From contig JBMNJT010000002.1 of assembly GCA_050951805.1 (NCBI GenBank), positions 1,248,001-1,312,000 of the forward strand: a stretch of DNA of 64,000 nt. The letters are read 5' to 3'. Origin of the DNA: Bacillota bacterium (GTDB lineage Bacteria > Bacillota > DTU025). The notes below the pieces were generated by a model, which was not told the origin of the DNA, searched no databases, and saw only the letters and a list, made by a program, of their open reading frames with translations. How positions within the stretch are numbered: position 1 is the first letter of the stretch; each line of letters opens with the position of its first letter. Positions 5,626 to 18,068 of this stretch are shown piece after piece. The position numbers and the translations under genes were made by a program.

Positions 5626-6411
5626 TCATGCCATGCCAAGAAGTGACAACATGGTCTTGGCATTTACCGCGGCTTGCCCGGCGTGGCAATTATTGAACAA
5701 AACGAAAGCACGCTTCGTGGCCTCTGCGAGACGCTGTATTTTTGGCGCCCACTCAAGGAGCTCTGCTTCGGTGTATAGATAATTATAACGTTCCCAAGCT
5801 TCATTATGTTTCCACCACGTCTTAGCATTTCTCCCGTGAAACCTTACATAAGCAATGGGAGACGTATATACGGCAAGAGGTGGAAAGAGCCCCCGTAGGT
5901 TGGGTTCATCCACACAGCAAAACCCCATTCCCGCCCCTTTGAGCAGGTCGAACGTAGACTGGGATACCCATTCCACATTCCTGAACTCGACCACGATGGG
6001 GATATCAGGCAGCAGTGCAGGAAGGCGCTGGACATAACTGCTATTTTCGGGAGTCCTCTTAAAGCCCCATGGAAACTGGCAGAGAACACAACCCAGCTTG
6101 CCTTCACTGACTAAAGGTGCCATCGCTTTGGAGAATGTCTGGAATGCCTCTGCGATATCATCGCTGTCACGAGAAAGCTCATGAGTCATACTTCGATGTG
6201 CCTTTACGCAAAAGCTGAAATTCTCGGGAGTCCTGCGAGACATGCCTCCAATGGTCTTCGCATCCGGCATGCGATAGTATGTGAAGTCCAGCTCCACCAC
6301 GCTGAATTGAGTTGCATACCATTCGAGCATCTCCCGATCGGAAATGCTTTCTGGGTAGAAAACGCCTCGCCAATCCCTGTAGCTGAACCCACAAGTTCCA
6401 ACCTCTATCAC
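5626..6411 (-). CDS. DUF72 family protein
   Basis: [41 protein letters not shown]. Confidence 0.92.
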
Positions 6412-6773
6412 GGCGAAGATCCCTCCATCAGCTTGAAGACAAGCTCTATGAATCCATCCTTGAACGAGAGTTCTGCCGGAGGTTTCCCGAAGGACTTCAC
6501 CTCTGCTATTTCTTGGACATCACTTGGCTTGCCCACAGCAAGCACATAAGCAATGTATACAATCCCCTTGGAACTGTTTACCCCGTTGGTCACTGTGTAC
6601 CAGCACAGAGGCTTCAAGTCGTCTACCAGAGCCCCCGCTTCCTCCAACAGCTCGCGACGGGCGGCCTCTTCAGGGCTTTCCCCCTGCTCTATTTGTCCTC
6701 CGGGAAACTCCCAACCTGCGCGGCGGACATTTCGAACCAGAAGGAGCTCCCCGTCTGTTACAGGCACGACCAA
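6408..6773 (-). CDS. NUDIX hydrolase (MutT/YtkD-like)
   Basis: Nudix box [27 protein letters not shown]; the frame stays open upstream, so the start is uncertain. Confidence 0.85.
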
Positions 6774-6882
6774 GACACTGTCAGGTTTTGACCATTCATC
6801 CTCAGGAGGACGACCACTAAACCAAAGATCTGTATGGACTCCGGGCCCGTCCAGCTTGATGAAGCCTCTTTCGTCGGCCTTG

Positions 6883-8037
6883 TCAGTCTTCCAACTCCCT
6901 ACCTCGAATCACACCCTTCGACCCATACCTTTGAGAAAGCTCGTCCAACACGTCGTCAATCGCACAGTTCCGATTGTCCGATCCGAAAAGCGAAAGCTGC
7001 CGACAATCGGATAGCCCGGATACAGATAGGCCGATAAGCCTGACAGCCATGCCCATATCAATTTCGTCCAGCAAAGTACATGCAGTGTTGTAGATGGTAT
7101 CGTAATCATCGAAGGGTTCGGCCATGGTCTTGCTTCTCGTCACTTGGCTGAAGTCTGCAAACTTCACTTTAACTGTCACGGTTCGCGCGAGCTTCCCCGC
7201 TCCGCGCAGCCTTGACCCAACCCTGCGGGCATGTTGCGCCAGGTATTGCACAAGTTCGTACCGGTCTGCGATATCCTCGTCGAATGTCGATTCAGACCCG
7301 AAGGATTTCTGCTCCTCATCTGCAACCACTGGGTCATCATCGATCCCGCGAGCCAAATCGTAGAGCTGTGCTCCCCATTTTCCATACTGCTCTACAAGCC
7401 ATTCCTTTGACCAGAGGCGAAGATCCTCTACGGTTTCAATGCCGTATCGTGCGAGAGACCTCTCCCCCTTTTCGCCCACTCCCCATACATCTCGTACTGG
7501 GAGAGGAGAGAGAAACGCGTCCACATCTTCTGGACAGATCACCAAGAGCCCGTCTGGCTTGGACTTCGATGAAGCCAGTTTGGCCAAGAACTTGTTTTGT
7601 GCTATGCCTACAGACGCCGTAAGCCCCGATGCATCCTTTATGGCCTGTTTTATCTGCGTGCCCAGATCCAAGGCGTCTGTGTAGAAGTGTTCACACCCGG
7701 TCATGTCGAGAAATGCCTCGTCTATGGAGACCTGTTGCATGATGGGCGTGAACGCCTCTAAGACACGCATTATTTCCCTTGACACCTGCACATATCGGGC
7801 CATGTTGCCCGGCACGAAAATGGCGTGAGGGCACAACCGCGCTGCCTGTGACATCGGCATCGCCGACCTCACACCATAGGCGCGCGCTTCATAGGAACAC
7901 GTAGACACCACAGCCCGAACGCTGTCACGAGGCCCGCCAACGATAACGGGTTTCCCGCGGTAATCGGGGTTGTCAAGTGCCTCTACTGCCGCGAAGAAAC
8001 AGTCCATGTCGACATGGGCGATGGTACGTGTCCACAC
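6883..8037 (-). CDS. dinB: DNA polymerase IV (Y family)
   Basis: [33 protein letters not shown]. Confidence 0.96.
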
Positions 8038-8043
8038 ACGAAA

Positions 8044-8628
8044 TCACTCAACTTTTTTTATTATGGTTACCAGGTCGCCGTTGCCTAGGCAGGCCGCGTT
8101 GGCTTCATCGGTGTCGATATGAAACTCCCACGTGTAGGAATCATCGACACGTACAAGAACTTCATCAAAAATGAGTGCTCGAGCCCCATTGACCTTGGTC
8201 ATTACAATGTCTTTATCCTTTAACCCGATGCGCTCGGCCTCCTCAGGAGTCATGTGGATGTGCCTCTTGGCCACTATGACGCCGACTGGAATAGTGATCT
8301 CGGCTTTCGGGCCAATGAGCTTGATTCCAGGCGAACCGTCCAGGTCACCTGAGTCGCGCACCGGAGGTTGCACGCCAAGCTTGAAAGAGTCGGTGCGGGA
8401 AATCTCGACCTGAGTCCGTTTGCGAACTGGACCGAGAACGCGAACTCTTGAAATAGTGCCTTTGGGGCCAACAACATCGACAGTCTCCTCAGAAGCATAT
8501 TGCCCTCTCTGGCTCAGATCCTTCCTGACTGTCAGCTCGTAGCCTTCGCCAAACAACGTATCCAAATCCGCACGGGAAAGATGGAGATGACGATTGGATA
8601 CTCCAACAGGAACCTCGTATAATGACAT
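8044..8628 (-). CDS. pduL: PduL-type phosphate acyltransferase
   Basis: VGVSNRHLHLS, QVEISRTD, RHIHM, HIDTDEANA. Confidence 0.93.
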   Translation of the reverse strand: MSLYEVPVGVSNRHLHLSRADLDTLFGEGYELTVRKDLSQRGQYASEETVDVVGPKGTISRVRVLGPVRKRTQVEISRTDSFKLGVQPPVRDSGDLDGSPGIKLIGPKAEITIPVGVIVAKRHIHMTPEEAERIGLKDKDIVMTKVNGARALIFDEVLVRVDDSYTWEFHIDTDEANAACLGNGDLVTIIKKVE

Positions 8629-8665: not shown

Positions 8666-8694
8666 ATGATAGCCTGTGTAGCCAGCAAAAGCAA
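8666..8694 (-). promoter_or_regulatory. sigmaA promoter of the pduL-dinB operon
   Basis: Minus strand TTGCTT-17 nt-TATCAT, upstream of SD AGGAGG. Confidence 0.65.
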
Positions 8695-8712
8695 TTGAGG
8701 CCGGCCAGCAAC

Positions 8713-10276
8713 CAGGAATTCCGCATATGCGTTTCGGCCTGGCAGGATACGGCATGCAGATGCCGCATGGTGTATAGCAATAAACCCCAGGCCCAATTGC
8801 ATCGTCTTCCATAGGTTCTCCCAGTCTACCTCGCCAACTTGCCGCTTGTTCAACCAGGGCTGGCTCTCGGGAGCAACTCAGTTATGGGCTGGCATAGCGT
8901 TTCCATCCCCACTAGCATCTGTCTTGCCAGCTCTTTCAGCGTTACGCCTCTTCCAGGAGCATCTTTCAGGTTCCTGTAGGCGAACAGCATCATCAGGTTG
9001 AAAACGATGCAGAACAAGGCATACATCGTCTGTATACCGTTAATGTCGTGCGTGTAGCAGTGATCAAAGCCCCAGTTCTGCTTGAGGTCGTTGAAGATCG
9101 AGTTCTCGATATCCCAGCGGCGGTGCATTATCTGCCAGACGATTGCCGCATTCACAATGCTTTTGGGAGCGGTCGTTACGATATGGTATACTGTCGGCTC
9201 AACCTTGACGACTTCGCCACGGCACGTCGTAATCTTGGTTTCAACGACCTTCAGGCACCGCAGCGGACGATCTACGCCATCCCAGCTTGTGAAGCCTTCT
9301 TCATCCCATATCTCTACGCTGTAGGTCACCCCATGGTTGATCGGGATGGGTTCGCCTTTCGGTGTTATTATCCCCACAAGCTCCACATCTGGGGAGCGAT
9401 CGGCCACGAGCCCATCCATGTCGCGTACCAGGTGGTAGTTGTCCTGTTTCAACTTTATGATGATCCACTTGCCAAGGGCGCTTACGGCGTTTATGAACGG
9501 CGCCTGGGCATACAGGGCATCCGCGCATATCATGTCGCAATATCGCCAGTTGCGATGCTGAGCCTTCCCCAAGAGCCGAATTGCCGCCGTAACCTCATCC
9601 TCCCCGGGCTCGATGCGCTCAATGTCCAAGATCAGGTGAGGGTGAGCACCTACGTAGGACAGCACCGCTGCACGTTCGTAATATTCGACCGCTCCGTTTG
9701 ACAGCGTACGCTTGGACCATTTGAGCGCCTCGACGGACGATGCTGCCGTTATAGGATCTGAATCCGCTGTAGTCGGCGACTGCCAGCCAGCGTCCCAAGG
9801 TATCAGCGCTAGGCTTTTTTCGGGTATGTATAAACCTGGCGAGCTCGCCGCTCTTTCCCTGCGTTCGATCTGGTACAAACTGCCCACTCTAGCTGCAATG
9901 GAGGCGACAAAAAGTGCTATAATGGTTGCACAAGGGTAATGTGGGTTCACTCTTGAGTTACGACATCCCGTAGCGAACTCATGCAGCCCAAACACCTTGT
10001 TTGCGTAATCAACAAATTGCTTTAGTCTATTCATCTTCCCCGCACCTTTGTTTTAACTTGCTGGGTTGAATGTCGAACAACTTCGACCTTAGGTGCGGGG
10101 ATTCTTTCTATCTCCAATCAGGGAATTACCCCCTCATATTGCTCTTCTGATAAGTTGCAATCGTACCACTTGAACGACATCATTTTCGAAAGTCCCTAGA
10201 ACACTGGTAATCGTCCCCGGCCAGTATCATGCAGCACTTCCGAACTCCTCACAATCTACGGCATGCGGAACTTCTG
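8713..10276 (-). mobile_element. CAG-ended DDE insertion sequence, copy A (defective, 1564 bp)
   Basis: Near-identical inverted copy of 13542-15253; TIRs CAGAAGTTCCGCAT and CAGGAATTCCGCAT; flanked by GGCCAGCAA at 8703-8711 and 10277-10285. Confidence 0.92.
8850..10034 (-). pseudogene. Transposase of copy A, lacking the first catalytic Asp
   Basis: Compared with copy B: 1-bp deletion plus a 101-bp deletion that removes AIDGT, and a 3-bp insertion. Confidence 0.85.
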
Positions 10277-10291
10277 GGCCAGCAAAGGGTG

Positions 10292-11638
10292 TTACAACAC
10301 GCTACCTCTTTCGATAACGCTCCTATACCACCTGGCACTGGATTTTGGGATCCTCTTGAGAGTAGTATAGTCAACGTAGATTATCCCAAACCTCTTGGAA
10401 TAGCCGAAAGCCCATTCGAAGTTGTCAAGTATTGACCAGAGATAGTATCCTTCCACCTCCACACCGTCTTGCATCGCCCTATGCAATTGGATAAGGTGGG
10501 CGCGGATATACTCCATGCGTTCTCGGTCGTCGACTAAGCCTCCAGAGCTTACCTGATCGTCGTAGGCAGCCCCGTTTTCCGTGATAAAGACGGCGGGAGG
10601 ATCGTAGTCTTGCTCGATCCGGAGCAAGAGGTCGTACAGTCCTTCAGGATAAACCTCCCAACCCATTGCGGTTACAGGCCTGTTCGTCCTTACATGAGAG
10701 AGTTCGAGAGGCTGTGCCTCTGGGTCGGCTTTTACCACGGCCCTGCTGTAATAGTTGACTCCCAAGAAATCGGTTGGAGTCGAGATGATTCCCATGTCTT
10801 CAATACTTATAGATGGTGCACCGAAGGCCCGCAAATAAAGCTCCATGATATCTTCTGGATATGAGCCTAGAAAGAGCGGATCCGCATACCACCGGTTCAG
10901 ACAGCCGTCCCACCGTCGTGCGGCCAATACGTCGCACTCATTGGAAGATGCGGGATAGACCGGACTCATGTTCAGGGTTATCCCTATGCGGGCACCTTGC
11001 CGGGAAAGGTCCCTGAAAGCCCTCACAGCTTCTCCATGCGATAGAAGGATATTGTGAGCTGCCGCAAGGGCTGACGGCATGTGGGAGACACCAGGAGCGT
11101 GCTCTCCTGTCCCGTAGCCCAAGGTTGCAGCCACCCATGGTTCGTTGTGTGTTATCCAGAGATCAACTCTATCTCCCAAGGCTTCAAACATGTAGGCTGC
11201 GTAATCAACAAAGTATTTTGCTGTGTCGCGGGCTATCCACCCTCCCTTATCCTGTAAAGCCTGGGGAAGGTCCCAATGGTACAGAGTCGCCATCGGCCTT
11301 ATGCCGGCTGCAAGCAACTCGTCTACAAGCCTATTGTAGAAATCGACGCCTTTTACGTTCGGGCGTCCGCCTCCGACGGGGAATATCCTTGGCCATGCAA
11401 TGGAGAAGCGATATGAATTGAGCTTCAATGATTCCATCAAGGAGACATCCTCTGAGAATCTATGATAATGATCGCATGCGATGGCCGGAGTGTCTCCGTT
11501 CACGATCTTCCCCGGGATGCGACAAAACCTGTCCCATATGGATTCGCCTTTGCCGTCTTCTAGCGTAGCACCTTCAATCTGGCATGAAGACGATGCTGCT
11601 CCCCAGAGAAAACCATCAGGGAATGTGTGTAGCGTCAA
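10292..11638 (-). CDS. bglA: GH1 beta-glucosidase
   Basis: FLWGAA..S.QIEG, TLYHWDLP, acid/base THNEP, nucleophile ITENG, DNFEW. Confidence 0.95.
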   Translation of the reverse strand: MTLHTFPDGFLWGAASSSCQIEGATLEDGKGESIWDRFCRIPGKIVNGDTPAIACDHYHRFSEDVSLMESLKLNSYRFSIAWPRIFPVGGGRPNVKGVDFYNRLVDELLAAGIRPMATLYHWDLPQALQDKGGWIARDTAKYFVDYAAYMFEALGDRVDLWITHNEPWVAATLGYGTGEHAPGVSHMPSALAAAHNILLSHGEAVRAFRDLSRQGARIGITLNMSPVYPASSNECDVLAARRWDGCLNRWYADPLFLGSYPEDIMELYLRAFGAPSISIEDMGIISTPTDFLGVNYYSRAVVKADPEAQPLELSHVRTNRPVTAMGWEVYPEGLYDLLLRIEQDYDPPAVFITENGAAYDDQVSSGGLVDDRERMEYIRAHLIQLHRAMQDGVEVEGYYLWSILDNFEWAFGYSKRFGIIYVDYTTLKRIPKSSARWYRSVIERGSVL

Positions 11639-11768
11639 GTTGCATCACCTACTTTCAGCGATAATTCCAAACTTCAACACAGGGCGACGAATCCCTCCGA
11701 CCCCAGCGAGGTTGGAGATGCATATTACTTCAACCGCAGATTTGGGCAGAAGCTCCGGGCACGGTCAT

Positions 11769-13532
11769 GATGGTGTAACTTTAGAGTAGGACGGGGAGAG
11801 GGAACGGGTTAGCGACGAAGAAGAGAGACCACAAAGTCCTGGAAGACGTTCCTGAGCGGGACGTCGCGGTGAAGTAATCCACCATCCAGCGCCCAGAAAG
11901 GTGGTCTCTCTATGGATGAGTTTATTCGTCGTGTTATGGATGCATTCCTGCAAGGGGTAGAGGATGTTGTGGCCGCTTTGTGCAAGGGGATGTCTGCTCC
12001 GGAGGCGGAAATGATGATCAAGGAACGTTGCGACAACCTTGCGGTAGCAATGTATTCGGAATACCTGAAAGAAGTGGACAGGCAGGTGCGTAACGACTTA
12101 GAGAACCGTAAGGGCTGGGTTGTGAACAAAAGAAGAGACAGCCGTTCAATCTTGAGCATCATGGGAAACGTTGAATATGAACGAACTTACTACCACAACG
12201 AAGGGACAGGCGAGTACCGGCACTTGTCAGATGATGTATGCGGGATAACGCCCCATGCACGCATTACGCCACTCTTCAGAGCGAACCTTGTGGAGAACTC
12301 ATGTGATATGTCGTATGGAAAGGCGGGCGAACTCACGGGGAGGTGCGCAGTAAGCGATCAAACTGTTATGAATTCGCTGAAGAAGCTCAAATTGGATCTG
12401 CCGACAAGTAATGACGGTGCACCAGCCCAAGAGAAGCGGAAGGTTAAGAAGCTGTATATCGAGGCCGACGAAGATCATCTCAGCGGGAATAGGAATAAGC
12501 GAATGCGGTTAGAACCGAAGCTTGTATACGTTCATGAGGGTCGAAAGAGGGTTGGACGTGGCCGCACCGAGCTGGTGCACGCGAAATACTTTGGAGGAAT
12601 GTACAAGGACCCTGAGGAGCTCTGGTGGGAAGTATACTGGTACATAGAGCAGACTTATGATATCGACTCCATAGAGATAATCTTCGTCACTGGGGATGGA
12701 GCCAACTGGATAACGTTTGGGGCCGAATTCATGGTGAATGGGGTGCGCTTGCCTGACCTGTTCCATCTACGCAAATACATTGTAGCTGCTTGTCATGGCG
12801 ATAAAAAACTGATGAGCAAGCTATGGAAGGCAGTAGATTCAGCAGAGCGCAGCAAAACCTTCGAGATTCTGGATGAAGCGGGATCCACCACGGTAACTAA
12901 GGGTCAGGCAAAATCCGTTGAGAGATGCCGCACTTACATATCGAATATGTGGGGCGCAATCGAAAACCGGCGGAGGTATTACCAGGAAGTAGTAGGTTGC
13001 AGTGCAGAAGGCCATGTAAGCCACATCTATTCGGATCGCATGTCCAGCCGCCCGATGTCATGGTCCGAGGAAGGGGCCAACATCATGGCCAAGCTGCGAG
13101 TGAAAAAGGCCAACGGCGAATCTGTAAGTGCCTGCGCCTTACCCAGCACAGCTCCCCGATTTGGGAGCATTAAGATCGACCAGGGTAAAGCTCAACAGCT
13201 ATGCTCGGAGGCAAAGACTATGGTTAGAACTAGCGGGAAGTGTCTGTGCAACCAGCTGGGCAACGTGCCAGTCCTAAAGGGCAAGGCCAGCTTTACTGCG
13301 CGGGTATTCAGGGAACTTCGGGATTCTATAGCCATATGATATGGGTCCGTTGTTGACGGCCATTGTGATTTTCCCGAGGGGGAATACGCTACTTCGCATC
13401 ACTCATATGCAACCAGCATCAAACAATAGCGCTGGATAAAACAAGCTTATACGGTTTTAACGACAGAGTCGGCATACCGGGATTAGCCAATGGTCTCTTA
13501 GCTGTTCTTTCCTACAGTAGGTTGACGCCGTC
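11769..13532 (+). mobile_element. ISLre2-family (Mutator-like) insertion sequence
   Basis: 23-bp imperfect TIRs GATGGTGTAACTTTAGAGTAGGA and GACGGCGTCAACCTACTGTAGGA (rc); 9-bp direct repeat CACGGTCAT at 11760-11768 and 13533-13541. Confidence 0.9.
11912..13339 (+). CDS. ISLre2 family transposase (UPF0236)
   Basis: LYIEADEDH, GDGANWI, DLFH, GCSAEGHVSHIYSDRMSSRPMSWS. Confidence 0.92.
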   Translation: MDEFIRRVMDAFLQGVEDVVAALCKGMSAPEAEMMIKERCDNLAVAMYSEYLKEVDRQVRNDLENRKGWVVNKRRDSRSILSIMGNVEYERTYYHNEGTGEYRHLSDDVCGITPHARITPLFRANLVENSCDMSYGKAGELTGRCAVSDQTVMNSLKKLKLDLPTSNDGAPAQEKRKVKKLYIEADEDHLSGNRNKRMRLEPKLVYVHEGRKRVGRGRTELVHAKYFGGMYKDPEELWWEVYWYIEQTYDIDSIEIIFVTGDGANWITFGAEFMVNGVRLPDLFHLRKYIVAACHGDKKLMSKLWKAVDSAERSKTFEILDEAGSTTVTKGQAKSVERCRTYISNMWGAIENRRRYYQEVVGCSAEGHVSHIYSDRMSSRPMSWSEEGANIMAKLRVKKANGESVSACALPSTAPRFGSIKIDQGKAQQLCSEAKTMVRTSGKCLCNQLGNVPVLKGKASFTARVFRELRDSIAI

Positions 13533-13541
13533 CACGGTCAT

Positions 13542-15253
13542 CAGAAGTTCCGCATGCCGTAGACTGTGAGGAGTTCGGAAGTGTTGCATGATACTGGCCG
13601 GGGACGATTACCAGTGTTCTAGGGACTTTCGAAAATGATGTCGTTCAAGTGGTACGATTGCAACTTATCAGAAGAGCAATATGAGGGGGTAATTCCCTGA
13701 TTGGAGATAGAAAGAATCCCCGCACCTAAGGTCGAAGTTGTTCGACATTCAACCCAGCAAGTTAAAACAAAGGTGCGGGGAAGATGAATAGACTAAAGCA
13801 ATTTGTTGATTACGCAAACAAGGTGTTTGGGCTGCATGAGTTCGCTACGGGATGTCGTGACTCAAGAGTGAACCCACAGTATCCCTGTGCAACCATTATA
13901 GCACTTTTTGTCGCCTCCATTGCAGCTAGAGTGGGCAGTTTGTACCAGATCGAACGCATGGGAAAAAGCGGCGAGCTCGACAGGTTTATACATACCCGAA
14001 AAAAGCCTAGCGCTGATACCTTGGGACGCTGGCTGGCAGTCGCCGACTACAGCGGATTCAGATCCTATAACGGCAGCATCGTCCAAAAGGCGAGGAGGAA
14101 CAAGGTTCACGCATATGGGACTATCTGCGGGTGGCGGGTTGCCGCGATAGACGGCACGGAGACCTTTTGCACCCAGAGCCCGACGGCCGAGGCGCTCAAA
14201 TGGTCCAAGCGTACGCTGTCAAACGGAGCGGTCGAATATTACGAACGTGCAGCGGTGCTGTCCTACGTAGGCGCTCACCCTCACCTGATCTTGGACATTG
14301 AGCGGATCGAGCCCGGGGAGGGTGAGGTTACGGCGGCAATTCGGCTCTTGGGGAAGGCTCAGCATCGCAACTGGCGATATTGCGACATGATATGCGCGGA
14401 TGCCCTGTATGCCCAGGCGCCGTTCATAAACGCCGTAAGCGCCCTTGGCAAGTGGATCATCATAAAGTTGAAACAGGACAACTACCACCTGGTGCGCGAC
14501 ATGGATGGGCTCGTGGCCGATCGCTCCCCAGATGTGGAGCTTGTGGGGATAACGCCGAAAGGCGAACCCATCCCGATCAACCATGGGGTGACCTACAGCG
14601 TAGAGATATGGGATGAAGAAGGCTTCACAAGCTGGGATGGCGTAGATCGTCCGCTGCGGTGCCTGAAGGTCGTTGAAACCAAGATTACGACGTGCCGTGG
14701 CGAAGTCGTCAAGGTTGAGCCGACAGTATACCATATCGTAACGACCGCTCCCAAAAGCATTGTGAATGCGGCAATCGTCTGGCAGATAATGCACCGCCGC
14801 TGGGATATCGAGAACTCGATCTTCAACGACCTCAAGCAGAACTGGGGCTTTGATCACTGCTACACGCACGACATTAACGGTATACAGACGATGTATGCCT
14901 TGTTCTGCATCGCTTTCAACCTGATGATGCTGTTCGCCTACAGGAACCTGAAAGATGCTCCTGGAAGAGGCGTAACGCTGAAAGAGCTGGCAAGACAGAT
15001 GCTAGTGGGGATGGAAACGCTATGCCAGCCCATAACTGAGTTGCTCCCGAGAGCCAGCCCTGGTTGAACAAGCGGCAAGTTGGCGAGGTAGACTGGGAGA
15101 ACCTATGGAAGACGATCTCCGGTCCCCCATAACAGCGGATTTGGGGGAAAGGGGGATGTATCAGCGCAATTGGGCCTGGGGTTTATTGCTATACACCATG
15201 CGGCATCTGCATGCCGTATCCTGCCAGGCCGAAACGCATATGCGGAATTCCTG
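13542..15253 (+). mobile_element. CAG-ended DDE insertion sequence, copy B (intact, 1712 bp); probably ISNCY/ISMae2-like
   Basis: TIRs start with CAG; flanking direct repeat CCACGGTCAT at 13532-13541 and 15254-15263; group assignment inferred from size, ends and motifs. Confidence 0.9.
13784..15067 (+). CDS. DDE transposase (DDE_Tnp_1-like)
   Basis: AIDGT, ADALYA, RRWDIENSIFNDLK motifs. Confidence 0.9.
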   Translation: MNRLKQFVDYANKVFGLHEFATGCRDSRVNPQYPCATIIALFVASIAARVGSLYQIERMGKSGELDRFIHTRKKPSADTLGRWLAVADYSGFRSYNGSIVQKARRNKVHAYGTICGWRVAAIDGTETFCTQSPTAEALKWSKRTLSNGAVEYYERAAVLSYVGAHPHLILDIERIEPGEGEVTAAIRLLGKAQHRNWRYCDMICADALYAQAPFINAVSALGKWIIIKLKQDNYHLVRDMDGLVADRSPDVELVGITPKGEPIPINHGVTYSVEIWDEEGFTSWDGVDRPLRCLKVVETKITTCRGEVVKVEPTVYHIVTTAPKSIVNAAIVWQIMHRRWDIENSIFNDLKQNWGFDHCYTHDINGIQTMYALFCIAFNLMMLFAYRNLKDAPGRGVTLKELARQMLVGMETLCQPITELLPRASPG

Positions 15254-15271
15254 CCACGGTCATCCCGCGCC

Positions 15272-15300
15272 TTGACAATGGCTCTGATGGGTTGTAGAAT
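15272..15300 (+). promoter_or_regulatory. sigmaA promoter of tRNA-Trp
   Basis: TTGACA-17 nt-TAGAAT. Confidence 0.85.
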
Positions 15301-15330: not shown

Positions 15331-15406
15331 AGGGGAGTAGCTCAATTGGTAGAGCATCGGTCTCCAAAACCGAGGGCTGCGGGTTCGAGTCCTGTCTCCC
15401 CTGCCA
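15331..15406 (+). tRNA. trnW: tRNA-Trp (CCA)
   Basis: 76-nt cloverleaf AGGGGAG/CTCCCCT, anticodon loop CTCCAAA, GGTTCGAGTCC T-arm, encoded CCA end. Confidence 0.97.
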
Positions 15407-15474: not shown

Positions 15475-16137
15475 TTAAACAACGGTCATGACTCCTACTT
15501 CATCCGGAATATACAGCCTTGCTTCTGTTGCAGCCAGGACCTCTCCTATCGTCACGTCTGGCGCAATTTCGCGCAGCACCGCCCCTTCAGGGGTAAACTC
15601 TATGACGCAGAGTTCCGTGACGAGCAGGTCTACTTCGGCTGTGGCGGTCAATGGCAAAGTGCATTTGCGCACCACTTTCGATCGGCCGTCTTTGGTCCTA
15701 TGTTCCATTGCTACGATGACTCGCTTTGCGCCTACTACGAGATCCATTGCGCCGCCCATTCCGATTATCCGTCCCGGAACGGCCCAATTGGCTAGATTTC
15801 CGTCCTGATCCACTTGTAACCCGCCGAGGATTGTTACATCCACGTGCCCTCCGCGGACTATCGCAAAGGACGTTGCTGAATCGAAGAATGCCCCGCCAGG
15901 CTTTATGGAAGAAGGTTGTCCGCCGGCGTTCACAAGATCCGGGTCTTCACGACCCGGTTCCGGAGGATCTCCCATGCCTACAAAGCCGTTCTCTGAGTGA
16001 AGGATAATGTTCACGTCGTGAGCAAGATGGTTCACGACGAAGGTCGGCAGGCCGATTCCAACGTTCACGACCTGTCCGGACTTGAGTTCTTGTGCTACTC
16101 TCCGTACGATAAGCTCTCGAGGTTCTATTGCCGCCAC
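15475..16137 (-). CDS. atoA: Butyrate-acetoacetate CoA-transferase beta subunit
   Basis: VNVGIGLPT, catalytic SENG, GGHVD, GMGGAMDL. Confidence 0.9.
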   Translation of the reverse strand: MAAIEPRELIVRRVAQELKSGQVVNVGIGLPTFVVNHLAHDVNIILHSENGFVGMGDPPEPGREDPDLVNAGGQPSSIKPGGAFFDSATSFAIVRGGHVDVTILGGLQVDQDGNLANWAVPGRIIGMGGAMDLVVGAKRVIVAMEHRTKDGRSKVVRKCTLPLTATAEVDLLVTELCVIEFTPEGAVLREIAPDVTIGEVLAATEARLYIPDEVGVMTVV

Positions 16138-16138
16138 T

Positions 16139-16798
16139 TCAGCTCACCCCTACAACTGCGTCTACGAATATGCCAGGGGTCATCACGTGATCTGGATCGA
16201 TACCGCCTATATCACGGATCTCGCTGGCCTCCGCTACGACGTAGTCAGCTGCCATAGCCATGAGCGGATTGAAGTTTCGAGCCGATTTGCGATACACCAA
16301 GTTGCCTGCGCGGTCTGCCACGTGTGCTCGAAGAAGTGCGATGTCTGCTCTCAGTGGAAGCTCTAGAAGATATGTATGACCTTCCAACTCCAGCTTGATC
16401 TTCCCTTCTTCGGCTATGGTTCCCACGCCTGTAGGCGTCAGTATGCCCCCAAGTCCGGCTCCTCCGGCGCGTATTCTCTCTGCCAGTGAGCCTTGGGGAC
16501 ACAATTCCACCGCGAGTTTTCCCTCGTCTTTCTGAGCGATTGCAGTGGGGTTCATACCCATGTAGCAGCAGATGAGCGTAGATACTTGCCCGTTGGCGAA
16601 TAGTCTCCCGTATCCCCGATCAGGCATCGCTGTGTCATTCACAATCAATGTAAGATCGCGGACTCCCCTTCGTATCACCTCGTCTACGAGCGTCTCTGGC
16701 GAGCCCACCGCCAGAAAGCCACCGATCATCAGAGTCATGCCGTCGGTAAGGCCTTCGAGCGCTTGGTCAAGCGTTCTCAGCTTTGGCACGCTTAGCAC
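16139..16798 (-). CDS. atoD: Butyrate-acetoacetate CoA-transferase alpha subunit
   Basis: MIGGF..G.P, PQGSLAERIRAGG.G, TGVGT, ARNFNP. Confidence 0.9.
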   Translation of the reverse strand: MLSVPKLRTLDQALEGLTDGMTLMIGGFLAVGSPETLVDEVIRRGVRDLTLIVNDTAMPDRGYGRLFANGQVSTLICCYMGMNPTAIAQKDEGKLAVELCPQGSLAERIRAGGAGLGGILTPTGVGTIAEEGKIKLELEGHTYLLELPLRADIALLRAHVADRAGNLVYRKSARNFNPLMAMAADYVVAEASEIRDIGGIDPDHVMTPGIFVDAVVGVS

Positions 16799-16807
16799 TC
16801 ACCTCCG

Positions 16808-17623
16808 TTATTTCTTGAGCTCCAGCATCTCCCTGGCTTCGTCCGGAGTGGCAACGTCCCTGCCTAGTTCACCTGCAATTCGAGCAATTCTGGCAACAAG
16901 CTGGGCATTGCTTTTTGCGAGGACACCACGGGAATAGTAGATGTTGTCCTCAAAACCCACTCGCACGTTGCCGCCTAGCACTATGGCAACAGCTGCAAGC
17001 TGAAGTTCAGCCCTGCCTATGCCAGCAACCTGCCACATGGTTCCAGGCGGGAGACTGTTGACGCAATGCATCAGGTCGGGCACGGTTCCAGGTATGCCTC
17101 CTGGCACGCCCATAACGAAATCAAAATACAGGGGTTCTTCTACAATATTTCGTTTGGCAAGTCGAAGTGCATTCGCTATGTGCCCAACGTCGAAGCACTC
17201 CAGTTCTGGCTTGACCCCTTTTTCCTTCATCCTGACCGCCAGGGCCTCGATTGCCTGTGGTTCGTTCATGAATACCTCATCACCGAAGTTGACTGTGCCT
17301 GTTGTGAGCGTGGCCATCTCAGGAGCGAGGTCAAGGGGACGCATTCGTTCCTCAATCGGAGTTCCTACTGCGCCTCCAGTCGAGATCTGCACGATTACGT
17401 CTGTTCGTTTTTTGATCTCTTCTATTGTCTTGCGGAATACCTCAATGTCCTGGGTTGGCTTGCCTTCCTCGTCTCTCACGTGCAGATGGACGATTGAGGC
17501 CCCCGCATTCCTGGCCTCCTCTGCGGCTTTGCCGATCTCTGCGGGGCTGAGTGGAAGGTAAGGCGCCTGTTCCCTTGAAAGTTCCGCCCCTACTAGGGCT
17601 GCAGTGATAATGAGTTTGTCCAA
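16808..17623 (-). CDS. kce: 3-keto-5-aminohexanoate cleavage enzyme
   Basis: KLIITAA.VGAE, AGASIVHLHVR, STGG, RVGFEDN; TTG start after SD AAGGAGG. Confidence 0.93.
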   Translation of the reverse strand: MDKLIITAALVGAELSREQAPYLPLSPAEIGKAAEEARNAGASIVHLHVRDEEGKPTQDIEVFRKTIEEIKKRTDVIVQISTGGAVGTPIEERMRPLDLAPEMATLTTGTVNFGDEVFMNEPQAIEALAVRMKEKGVKPELECFDVGHIANALRLAKRNIVEEPLYFDFVMGVPGGIPGTVPDLMHCVNSLPPGTMWQVAGIGRAELQLAAVAIVLGGNVRVGFEDNIYYSRGVLAKSNAQLVARIARIAGELGRDVATPDEAREMLELKK

Positions 17624-17627
17624 TTGA

Positions 17628-18068
17628 TTAGCCCTCCTTCTTAGTGGTCTCCGCGTCCTGCCCACAGCCGCAGCAATTGCCTTGCTTGCGTTGCTTATCC
17701 TTCGGGACAACACAGGTCCCACTGGCGCGGGCAACAAGGAGAGGCTCCTCCAGAATAAAGGCTGCTGAAGGATCCTTTGGATCACGGCATGCTTCTATGA
17801 CTTTGTGGGCTTCAAAGGTCATTGCCCGAGAAGTATTGCCCGTTCTCACAATGCGTCCGCGGGCTTCGATATAGTCGCCCGCATAGACAGGGGCCTTAAA
17901 CTCCACCATGTCATATGCGACGAAAAGCCCCTCATCTCCGTCGTGCCTTATAAGGAGTTCAGTGGCGACGTCGCCGAACAGCTGCATTAGCTTGGCGCCG
18001 TCCACCAGATCTCCGCCGTAATGGGCGTCAGACTGACTCATCCTGACCCTGATCATGACTTCTTCCAT
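17628..18068 (-). CDS. kal: 3-aminobutyryl-CoA ammonia-lyase (hotdog fold)
   Basis: [29 protein letters not shown]. Confidence 0.93.

Follow-up and report, generated by a model that had tools for sequence, protein, structure and literature searches.

An unclassified insertion sequence family with a predicted Tn5-type transposase inserts in one orientation at a fixed position upstream of putative sigmaA-type promoters

Between the pduL gene and the gene for tRNA-Trp, in a 64,000-nucleotide (nt) stretch of the genome of a Bacillota bacterium (GTDB lineage Bacteria; Bacillota; DTU025; GenBank assembly GCA_050951805.1, contig JBMNJT010000002.1, positions 1,248,001 to 1,312,000, hereafter the window), lie three insertion sequences (IS) and one host gene. 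Two of the three IS are copies, A and B, of an element which we refer to as the CAG-ended IS, and the other is a member of the ISLre2 family. Whole-genome BLAST identified three copies of the CAG-ended IS in this genome. Our comparison of these copies with their relatives leads to the conclusion that the family almost certainly inserts at a fixed spot upstream of sigmaA-type promoters. It does so in a fixed orientation, with the end that lies 3′ of the transposase gene (the right end) 17 nt, or in the clade of the window IS 17 or 18 nt, upstream of the predicted −35 hexamer, and both predicted promoter hexamers are left intact, firing away from the element. The features of the locus, in window coordinates, are as follows.

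8044-8628, minus strand: pduL, phosphate propanoyltransferase (Pfam PTAC, E 9.9e-82), with its ATG at 8628.
8666-8694, minus strand: predicted pduL promoter, TTGCTT (8694-8689), 17-nt spacer, TATCAT (8671-8666).
8703-8711, minus strand: target-site duplication (TSD) of copy A, TTGCTGGCC in element orientation; its other copy is at 10277-10285.
8712-10276, minus strand: copy A of the CAG-ended IS, 1565 base pairs (bp), delimited by genome BLAST and an empty-site joint.
10292-11638, minus strand: glycoside hydrolase family 1 (GH1) gene (Pfam Glyco_hydro_1, E 7.4e-175), between copy A and the ISLre2 copy.
11769-13532, plus strand: ISLre2-family IS, transposase at 11912-13339 (Pfam UPF0236, E 2.9e-73).
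13542-15254, plus strand: copy B of the CAG-ended IS, 1712-1713 bp, delimited by genome BLAST.
13784-15067, plus strand: transposase gene of copy B, 427 amino acids (aa) (Pfam PF01609 DDE_Tnp_1, E 1.7e-10).
15255-15263, plus strand: promoter-side TSD of copy B, CACGGTCAT.
15272-15300, plus strand: tRNA-Trp promoter, sigmaA-type, TTGACA, 17-nt spacer, TAGAAT (11/12 consensus matches in the promoter scan).
15331-15406, plus strand: tRNA-Trp, the gene served by the promoter at 15272-15300.

Copy B begins with CAGAAGTTCCGCAT at 13542 (CAGAAG...) and its right end, ...GGAATTCCTG, closes with CCTG at 15253, after which there is one extra C at 15254. Immediately 3′ are CACGGTCAT (15255-15263), CCCGCGCC (15264-15271), TTGACA (15272-15277), a 17-nt spacer and TAGAAT (15295-15300). 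The 18 nt from the CTG end to the −35 hexamer are therefore made up of one extra base, a 9-bp TSD and 8 nt (or, if the extra base is counted with the TSD, of a 10-bp TSD and 8 nt), and the tRNA-Trp promoter has been left intact 8 nt past the TSD. The sequence CACGGTCAT is found three times in the window, at 11760-11768, 13533-13541 and 15255-15263, from which it follows that the ISLre2 copy and copy B duplicated the identical 9 bp before the tRNA-Trp promoter. The ISLre2 copy is co-oriented with that promoter and would be 17 nt from the −35 hexamer if copy B were removed, so it fits the same pattern, as a first-pass annotation of the window had observed. Copy B is equally readable as having a perfect 10-bp TSD in which the final base of the ISLre2 element is counted, in which case it would have arrived after the ISLre2 copy. 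A 10-bp TSD is also present at another locus (L036), and the extra base between the CTG end and the TSD is G in copy A (8712) and C in copy B (15254), with none in the third copy in this genome (G000:C2:676688-676689).

On the minus strand, the CTG end of copy A is at 8713, followed by an extra base at 8712, the TSD at 8711-8703, 8 nt and TTGCTT at 8694. The right end of this copy faces pduL, and its CTG end is likewise 18 nt from TTGCTT (one extra base, 9-bp TSD and 8 nt); the 18-nt spacing had been reported for both copies in the first-pass annotation and all of its coordinates, 15253/15272 and 8713/8694, are correct. Relative to copy B, copy A has two internal deletions, of 49 nt (8800/8801) and about 103 nt (9732-9735), which have shortened its open reading frame (ORF; 8850-10034) to 394 aa. 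At the same pduL site a contig of run X19 has the letters missing from copy A, so that a full-length copy at this site exists in another sample. An empty-site allele was also found, in RNA-library contigs from two studies (X2 and X5) that join 8702 to 10277 and skip 1574 nt, with nine ambiguous letters, and this joint, which has a single copy of the TSD, independently confirms the boundaries of copy A. Near pduL the ends of contigs from the two runs differ, being at 8621 (X2) and 8638 (X5), and both are short of the predicted start at approximately 8659.

The pduL promoter has a counterpart in another genus, as the stretch from its −35 hexamer to the start is identical at 36 of 40 positions 5′ of pduL in the genome G003. 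In that genome (L235, G003:C61, at approximately 2290-2440 of the locus) pduL and tRNA-Trp are divergent neighbors whose −35 hexamers are 12 nt apart, with no IS, and in the genome studied here the two promoters are 6.6 kb apart, with three IS and the GH1 gene between them. The GH1 gene is host DNA that keeps the two targeted promoters apart. Of 12 related genomes searched, 7 have a match to pduL, with 64-69% identity, which is too distant for an exact empty site.

The third copy of the CAG-ended IS (G000:C2:674977-676688) is full length and 98.9% identical to copy B, and since it is outside the window, and thus outside the view of the first-pass annotation, it represents an independent test. 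Its right flank has a 9-bp TSD and 8 nt followed by a TG-extended TTGAAT-17-TATACT, and a thymidine kinase gene lies downstream. Hence all three copies in this genome (3/3) have TTGnnn-17-TAnnnT at 17-18 nt from their right ends. The genome also has a degenerate remnant of a CAG-ended IS (G000:C8:533288-533692), with 76% DNA identity over 179 nt, whose protein fragment is 58% identical and has 2 stop codons.

Three sites are few, and we surveyed the flanks of the family more widely. A protein search identified 116 relatives, nearly all of them unnamed metagenome proteins, and 22 of these were aligned. Loci were then fetched with the 22-sequence alignment (the best 80 of 554 genome matches plus 79 metagenome loci, from the best 80 of at least 545), to which loci from related genomes were added, so that the relatives span 29-100% protein identity in genomes and metagenomes. 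Ends were called from the IS terminal motif alone, which had to be found within 520 nt past the transposase match or within 650 nt ahead of it, and the flanks were not used for the calls. The raw ends, 159 right and 155 left, were reduced to 129 and 123 by merging exact-duplicate flanks and to 124 and 122 once flanks that contained N or fell below 60 nt had been dropped. Of these, 9 right and 6 left flanks enter another IS copy; they were treated as tandem and not counted, and 115 right and 116 left flanks remained. IS that were 80% identical in their final 400 nt were assigned to one lineage, and the TTG background is 1.9% per offset. Among the sources is the complete genome of Haloimpatiens lingqiaonensis, which has a 31%-identical transposase in an IS of 1611 bp, with at least 37 copies and 9-bp TSDs.

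The flanks gave a signal on one side and at essentially one offset. Of the 115 right flanks, 56 have TTG at offset 17, compared with none of 116 left flanks (binomial p = 1.7e-64), and at offset 18 it is present in 12 of 115 right and 3 of 116 left flanks, whereas at any other offset it occurs 0-5 times in right flanks and 0-4 times in left, with only 0-1 each in right flanks at offsets 15, 16, 19 and 20. Chance is excluded by these family-wide counts. A −35/−10 pair at offsets 16-18 is present in 51/115 right flanks and 1/116 left flanks, and a −10-like hexamer follows the TTG by 16-18 nt in 51 of 68 cases compared with 15 of the 97 TTGs elsewhere in the flanks (Fisher 9e-15), an enrichment that persists in flanks with a GC fraction of at least 0.45 (20/27 against 3/34). 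The hexamer is exactly TTGACA in 22/68 and the commonest spacer is 17 nt (37/68). Right flanks that have no such TTG are informative as well, since 18 of 47 have a strong −10 hexamer (at least 5/6 matches) at offsets 39-43, several of them TG-extended, in comparison to 3/116 left flanks; the register is therefore kept even when the −35 is poor. By either signal, 86 of 115 right flanks and only 5 of 116 left flanks are positive, that is, a −35/−10 pair recurs at a fixed offset from one end at many sites, which is what defines the functional class of promoter-targeting elements, and positive sites are found in 36 of the 44 IS lineages. The signal does not depend on a single host: in Haloimpatiens 21 of the 35 distinct right flanks have TTG at 17 or 18, compared with none of 34 left flanks, and in all loci beyond Haloimpatiens and the genome studied here the corresponding counts are 44/77 right and 3/79 left. 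Judging from record titles, positive sites come from Bacillota, Planctomycetota, Nitrospirota/Thermodesulfovibrionales, Bdellovibrionota, delta-proteobacteria and Anaerolineae.

It was this alignment of the flanks of copies and homologs that the first-pass annotation had proposed, and its outcome, TTG at a fixed offset and, some 17 nt beyond that hexamer, a −10, both confined to the right side, bears out the co-orientation of right end and promoter which that annotation had described for two copies. The flank counts also support its core idea, that a non-Mutator IS inserts upstream of promoters in an oriented manner, convergently with ISLre2/TnGBS, and leaves the promoter intact. Its fixed distance needs amendment: the offset is fixed family-wide, but the family value is 17 nt, with the window clade divided between 17 and 18. 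In the clade nearer the window IS (at least 38% identity) the offset is 17 in 6 sites and 18 in 10, compared with 30 sites at 17 and one at 18 among distant relatives.

Perfect 9-bp TSDs were found at 55 of 97 paired ends and 10-bp TSDs at 2. In terms of position, the staggered cut covers 9 bp and stops 8 bp short of the −35, which puts it at roughly −44 to −52 relative to the start site. Co-oriented tRNA genes lie 65-220 nt downstream of 8/95 right flanks and of 0/89 left flanks. Head-to-tail arrays were found as well, with 9 of 124 right ends abutting a 9-bp TSD and then the left end of another copy. These right ends are at L080, L098, L103, L053, L062, L151, L181, L182 and L216, and the window itself (11760-15263) has a mixed array of ISLre2 and CAG-ended IS on CACGGTCAT. 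Such arrays indicate repeated use of one surviving target: because the target survives insertion, the same site can be hit again, which accounts for the tandem arrays as well as the mixed array of ISLre2 and copy B. An element in a Bdellovibrionota record (L066), of which one copy was seen, has terminal repeats that are 29/30 identical and its right end at TTGACT-17-TATAAA.

Could random insertion, followed by purifying selection that leaves only the harmless sites upstream of promoters, have produced this distribution? Intergenic, non-disruptive sites are expected to survive, and many copies are old enough for filtering to have occurred. However, selection cannot give a single-nucleotide offset, with 56 of 115 at 17 and 0-1 at 15, 16, 19 and 20, nor can it give one orientation or the reuse of identical 9 bp, as in the 9/124 tandem ends and the triple CACGGTCAT. 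We consider this explanation highly improbable.

A second matter is whether the enzyme responsible is simply a diverged relative of the ISLre2 transposase. BLASTP of the CAG-ended IS transposase against the ISLre2 transposase of the window found no similarity (E of 1.3 or higher), and the CAG-ended IS has only DDE_Tnp_1, with no match to UPF0236 or NF033529, the models for ISLre2 membership. The two enzymes thus belong to different Pfam families, and as the first-pass annotation had maintained, they are unrelated. The AF2 model of the transposase (pLDDT 90.7, pTM 0.90) points in the same direction: in the Foldseek search ranks 1-5 are Tn5 transposase, matched over the whole length (E 6e-12 to 1.5e-10, TM 0.58-0.60), and the sole Mutator-like structure listed, that of the IS256-family ISCth4, is at rank 9 with a TM of 0.24. 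The DDE triad, D123, D201/D206 and E343, is invariant in the 22-sequence alignment, with spacings of approximately 78-83 and 137-142 residues.

These spacings agree with those of the IS4 family, D(60-110)D(100-150)E, for which the survey of De Palmenaer et al. (2008; PMC2266710) gives Y(2)R(3)E(6)K as the defining signature and TSDs of 9-12 bp. The TSDs of the CAG-ended family are also within the IS4 range (9-12 bp, about one helical turn). The YREK motif, in contrast, is absent: the consensus is IMHRRWDIENxxFNDLK, which retains R339(3)E343 but has no Y two residues before the R, and K351 is 7 rather than 6 residues after the E in the alignment consensus. Of the two NCBIfam IS4 models, NF033592 gives the best NCBIfam score at 54.5 bits, where the cut-off is 115, and NF033591 gives 22 bits, where it is 152; every NCBIfam IS-family model scores below its cut-off, IS701, IS1380 and IS1182 also being far below. 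In a search of annotated plasmids there were 2 weak matches, both labelled just “transposase.” The family is an IS of 1.5-2.0 kb with one ORF of about 400-430 aa, a 9-bp (occasionally 10-bp) TSD and terminal repeats of the form 5′-CAGnnnTT(C/T)(C/A)G(C/T), so that the ends are 5′-CAG...CTG-3′. It is neither ISLre2, nor the ISKra4 group, nor IS4 in the strict sense; with its modeled Tn5-type fold and its Tn5-type 9-bp TSD, it is best described as an IS4-related yet unclassified family.

The transposase leader of copy B (13715-13790) has an 11-bp stem that pairs the Shine-Dalgarno region just 5′ of the ATG at 13784 and might keep read-through transcripts from being translated. In its entirety, the 259-nt leader is not more stable than shuffles (z = −0.69), and the scan for a terminator at the right end of the CAG-ended IS found none.

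The ISLre2 elements of the same genome provide a comparison within one host. The window element (11769-13532) scores 308.9 bits with NF033529 against a cut-off of 200, and there are 4 full copies in the genome. A 9-bp TSD, 8 nt and a −35-like hexamer are found at the flanks of 3/4 other copies as well as the window copy once copy B is removed. One copy (G000:C8:353560-355323) has no matching TSD and no promoter-like right flank, and a 1045-bp 3′ fragment (G000:C3:142363-143407) is 17 nt from TGTGAA-17-TAATCT.

A major question arising from these observations is “What does the transposase recognize?” One answer might be that it reads the −35 hexamer on naked DNA, with the −10 being enriched since the intergenic TTGACA-like sites that survive are mostly real promoters. 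In support of this, TTG carries more information than any other feature of the flanks, 0.4-0.8 bit per position for the mixed set and as much as 1.4 bit for Haloimpatiens, and the hexamer is an exact TTGACA in 22 of 68 sites. Hexamer positions 4-6, however, are only weakly constrained, the −10 follows the TTG far more often than it follows TTGs elsewhere (51/68 against 15/97), and 18 of the 47 sites with no TTG nevertheless have a strong −10 in register, against 3/116 controls. Additionally, the unrelated ISLre2 has the identical 9 + 8 nt, and a ruler shared through the host is simpler than two DNA-reading domains. We therefore regard direct reading of the −35 as a serious rival but an unlikely one.

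Rather, the explanation we find probable overall is that insertion is promoter-targeted and that it is the promoter, acting as a functional unit, which determines where the element inserts, the transposase being unlikely to read a DNA word. A promoter complex is favored over such a word because there is no consensus at the cut site, where the TSD and the 8-nt linker have no more than 0.3 bit of information per position (the first-pass annotation had likewise argued against sequence specificity, from two target sites). It is favored, too, by a −10 enriched far beyond what TTG alone brings, by the sites with a poor −35 that keep an in-register and often TG-extended −10, by the excess of TTGACA and of tRNA promoters, which are heavily occupied, and by the identical geometry of the unrelated ISLre2 in the same genome.

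Could the element instead sense a physical state of promoter DNA upstream of the −35, such as a bend, unwinding or supercoiling, in the absence of a specific protein contact? Transposases of the Tn5 type and other DDE transposases prefer bent targets, and both the lack of a consensus at the cut site and the geometry shared by two unrelated families would be expected under such a scenario. Against it is the strict orientation, 86/115 right and 5/116 left, because a symmetric deformation would not orient the element, and intrinsic DNA shape could hardly give precision to a single base in hosts both GC-rich and AT-rich. We consider this quite improbable, and if it is the polymerase that makes the deformation, the explanation merges with that of the promoter as a functional unit.

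As for what sets the position within the promoter, we lean, on balance, toward guidance by RNA polymerase. In such a mechanism the transpososome would dock on promoter-bound RNA polymerase holoenzyme, on the side of sigma region 4 and the alpha-CTD, or alternatively would follow the DNA path imposed by the holoenzyme just upstream of the −35, and orientation would result from an asymmetric contact of the two-ended complex with its docking partner. Contact with the initiation complex was proposed for TnGBS, by analogy with Ty3 (Guerillot et al., PMC3942029). A predicted complex of the CAG-ended IS transposase with sigmaA residues 296-388 scored 0.00 and is given no weight on either side. It seems to us an even chance that the Tn5-like and Mutator-like superfamilies have converged on the same ruler, namely docking on promoter-bound polymerase and integration across one and the same 9-bp stretch, 8 bp short of the −35.

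Several observations weigh against promoter-targeted insertion or its guidance by a promoter complex. All promoters in the survey were predicted from sequence, and 29 of 115 right flanks have no promoter-like motif by the survey rule. The −35 of the pduL promoter has only 3/6 consensus matches, which is why a generic scan did not list it. Of the 97 paired ends, 40 have no TSD, most of these pairs being on short metagenome contigs that may join the flanks of different copies. A TTG signal is equally expected from a transposase that reads the −35 directly. Lastly, in one subgroup (G024) none of 3 right flanks is positive, and both of its sites with paired ends (L008 and L020) have no TSD, its copies being about 90-92% alike. 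These three sites were kept in the counts as misses. Members of this subgroup (L008, L015, L020, L025) are 1500-bp IS with 29-33% identical transposases and ends CAGCRRTTTAGC. Wrong end calls were considered as a cause of these misses and rejected, as the copies align over exactly 1353-2851; the set is either old and decayed or a branch that has no targeting.

With regard to the wider neighborhood, a Y-family DNA polymerase (IMS domains) is encoded directly 3′ of pduL, in the region 5626-8037. A DUF72 protein is another neighbor, and beyond tRNA-Trp (15475-17785) are genes for two CoA-transferase subunits and a beta-keto acid cleavage enzyme.

What are the implications of a second, unrelated enzyme with the same geometry? 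Firstly, the shared determinant must then lie in the host promoter complex and not in the transposase fold, and the proposal of polymerase docking becomes directly testable. Secondly, no transposase scaffold is better understood or more engineered than the Tn5 fold, which makes a promoter-seeking version attractive for structural work, with possible uses in promoter mapping and in tools for insertion at harmless sites. For annotation, the right end of the element locates a promoter to the exact base, even in phyla that have been little studied. For IS taxonomy, this is a widespread, unnamed and active IS family that falls below all NCBIfam IS-family cut-offs and has no IS4 YREK signature. If the idea of a shared ruler is true, bacterial initiation complexes would represent a general landing pad for mobile DNA, and the family would constitute a natural “promoter-seeking Tn5” that reports or exploits polymerase occupancy in vivo from Bacillota to Planctomycetota.

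The closest known parallel in behavior is that of the ISLre2/TnGBS elements, which were reported to insert 15-17 bp upstream of sigmaA −35 boxes with a peak at 16 bp from the right inverted repeat (Guerillot et al., 2014, PMC3942029). Like the CAG-ended IS, they insert in a single orientation with the right inverted repeat beside the promoter, and the ISLre2 copies of the genome studied here have the same 9-bp TSD and 8 nt before the −35. The enzymes differ, UPF0236/NF033529 in one case and DDE_Tnp_1 in the other, as does the host range, ISLre2 being mainly reported from Firmicutes (PMC9208149) whereas the CAG-ended family is positive in at least six phyla by record title. In the account of Guerillot et al., oriented integration upstream of promoters is termed unique and atypical among prokaryotic elements for Mutator-like transposases, the specificity is reported for ISLre2/TnGBS and the ISKra4 group, and promoter targeting is tied to a signature motif between domains N1 and N2 of p-MULT 3/4 (PMC3942029). 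The ISKra4 group (p-MULT 4) is described there as a second lineage found upstream of putative sigmaA promoters; it is Mutator-like, and the signal of the CAG-ended IS is confined to the right side. The same source notes that, among Mutator-like elements, near-perfect terminal repeats went with insertion in both orientations (PMC3942029).

In terms of the enzyme, the closest parallels are Tn5/IS50 and IS4, which share with the CAG-ended IS the whole-length fold, as modeled, the DDE_Tnp_1 domain, a 9-bp TSD and a single ORF. Tn5 insertion has a weak sequence bias. The CAG-ended family differs from IS4 in having no YREK motif and in scoring below the NCBIfam cut-offs, and the main text of the IS4 survey uses the word “promoter” 0 times (PMC2266710). 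Our search of open-access papers and bioRxiv, with ISfinder, TnPedia and subscription journals outside its scope, turned up no non-Mutator IS described as targeting sites upstream of promoters. A more distant comparison, drawn as an analogy with no homology implied, is with Ty3 of yeast, which is placed at a fixed distance from the transcription start via the initiation machinery. Ty3 is a eukaryotic LTR retroelement with an integrase that targets RNA polymerase III promoters through TFIIIB/TFIIIC. What is new in the CAG-ended family, relative to these systems, is that a known targeting behavior has arisen by convergence on a different transposase fold, with a distribution, by record title, across at least six phyla.

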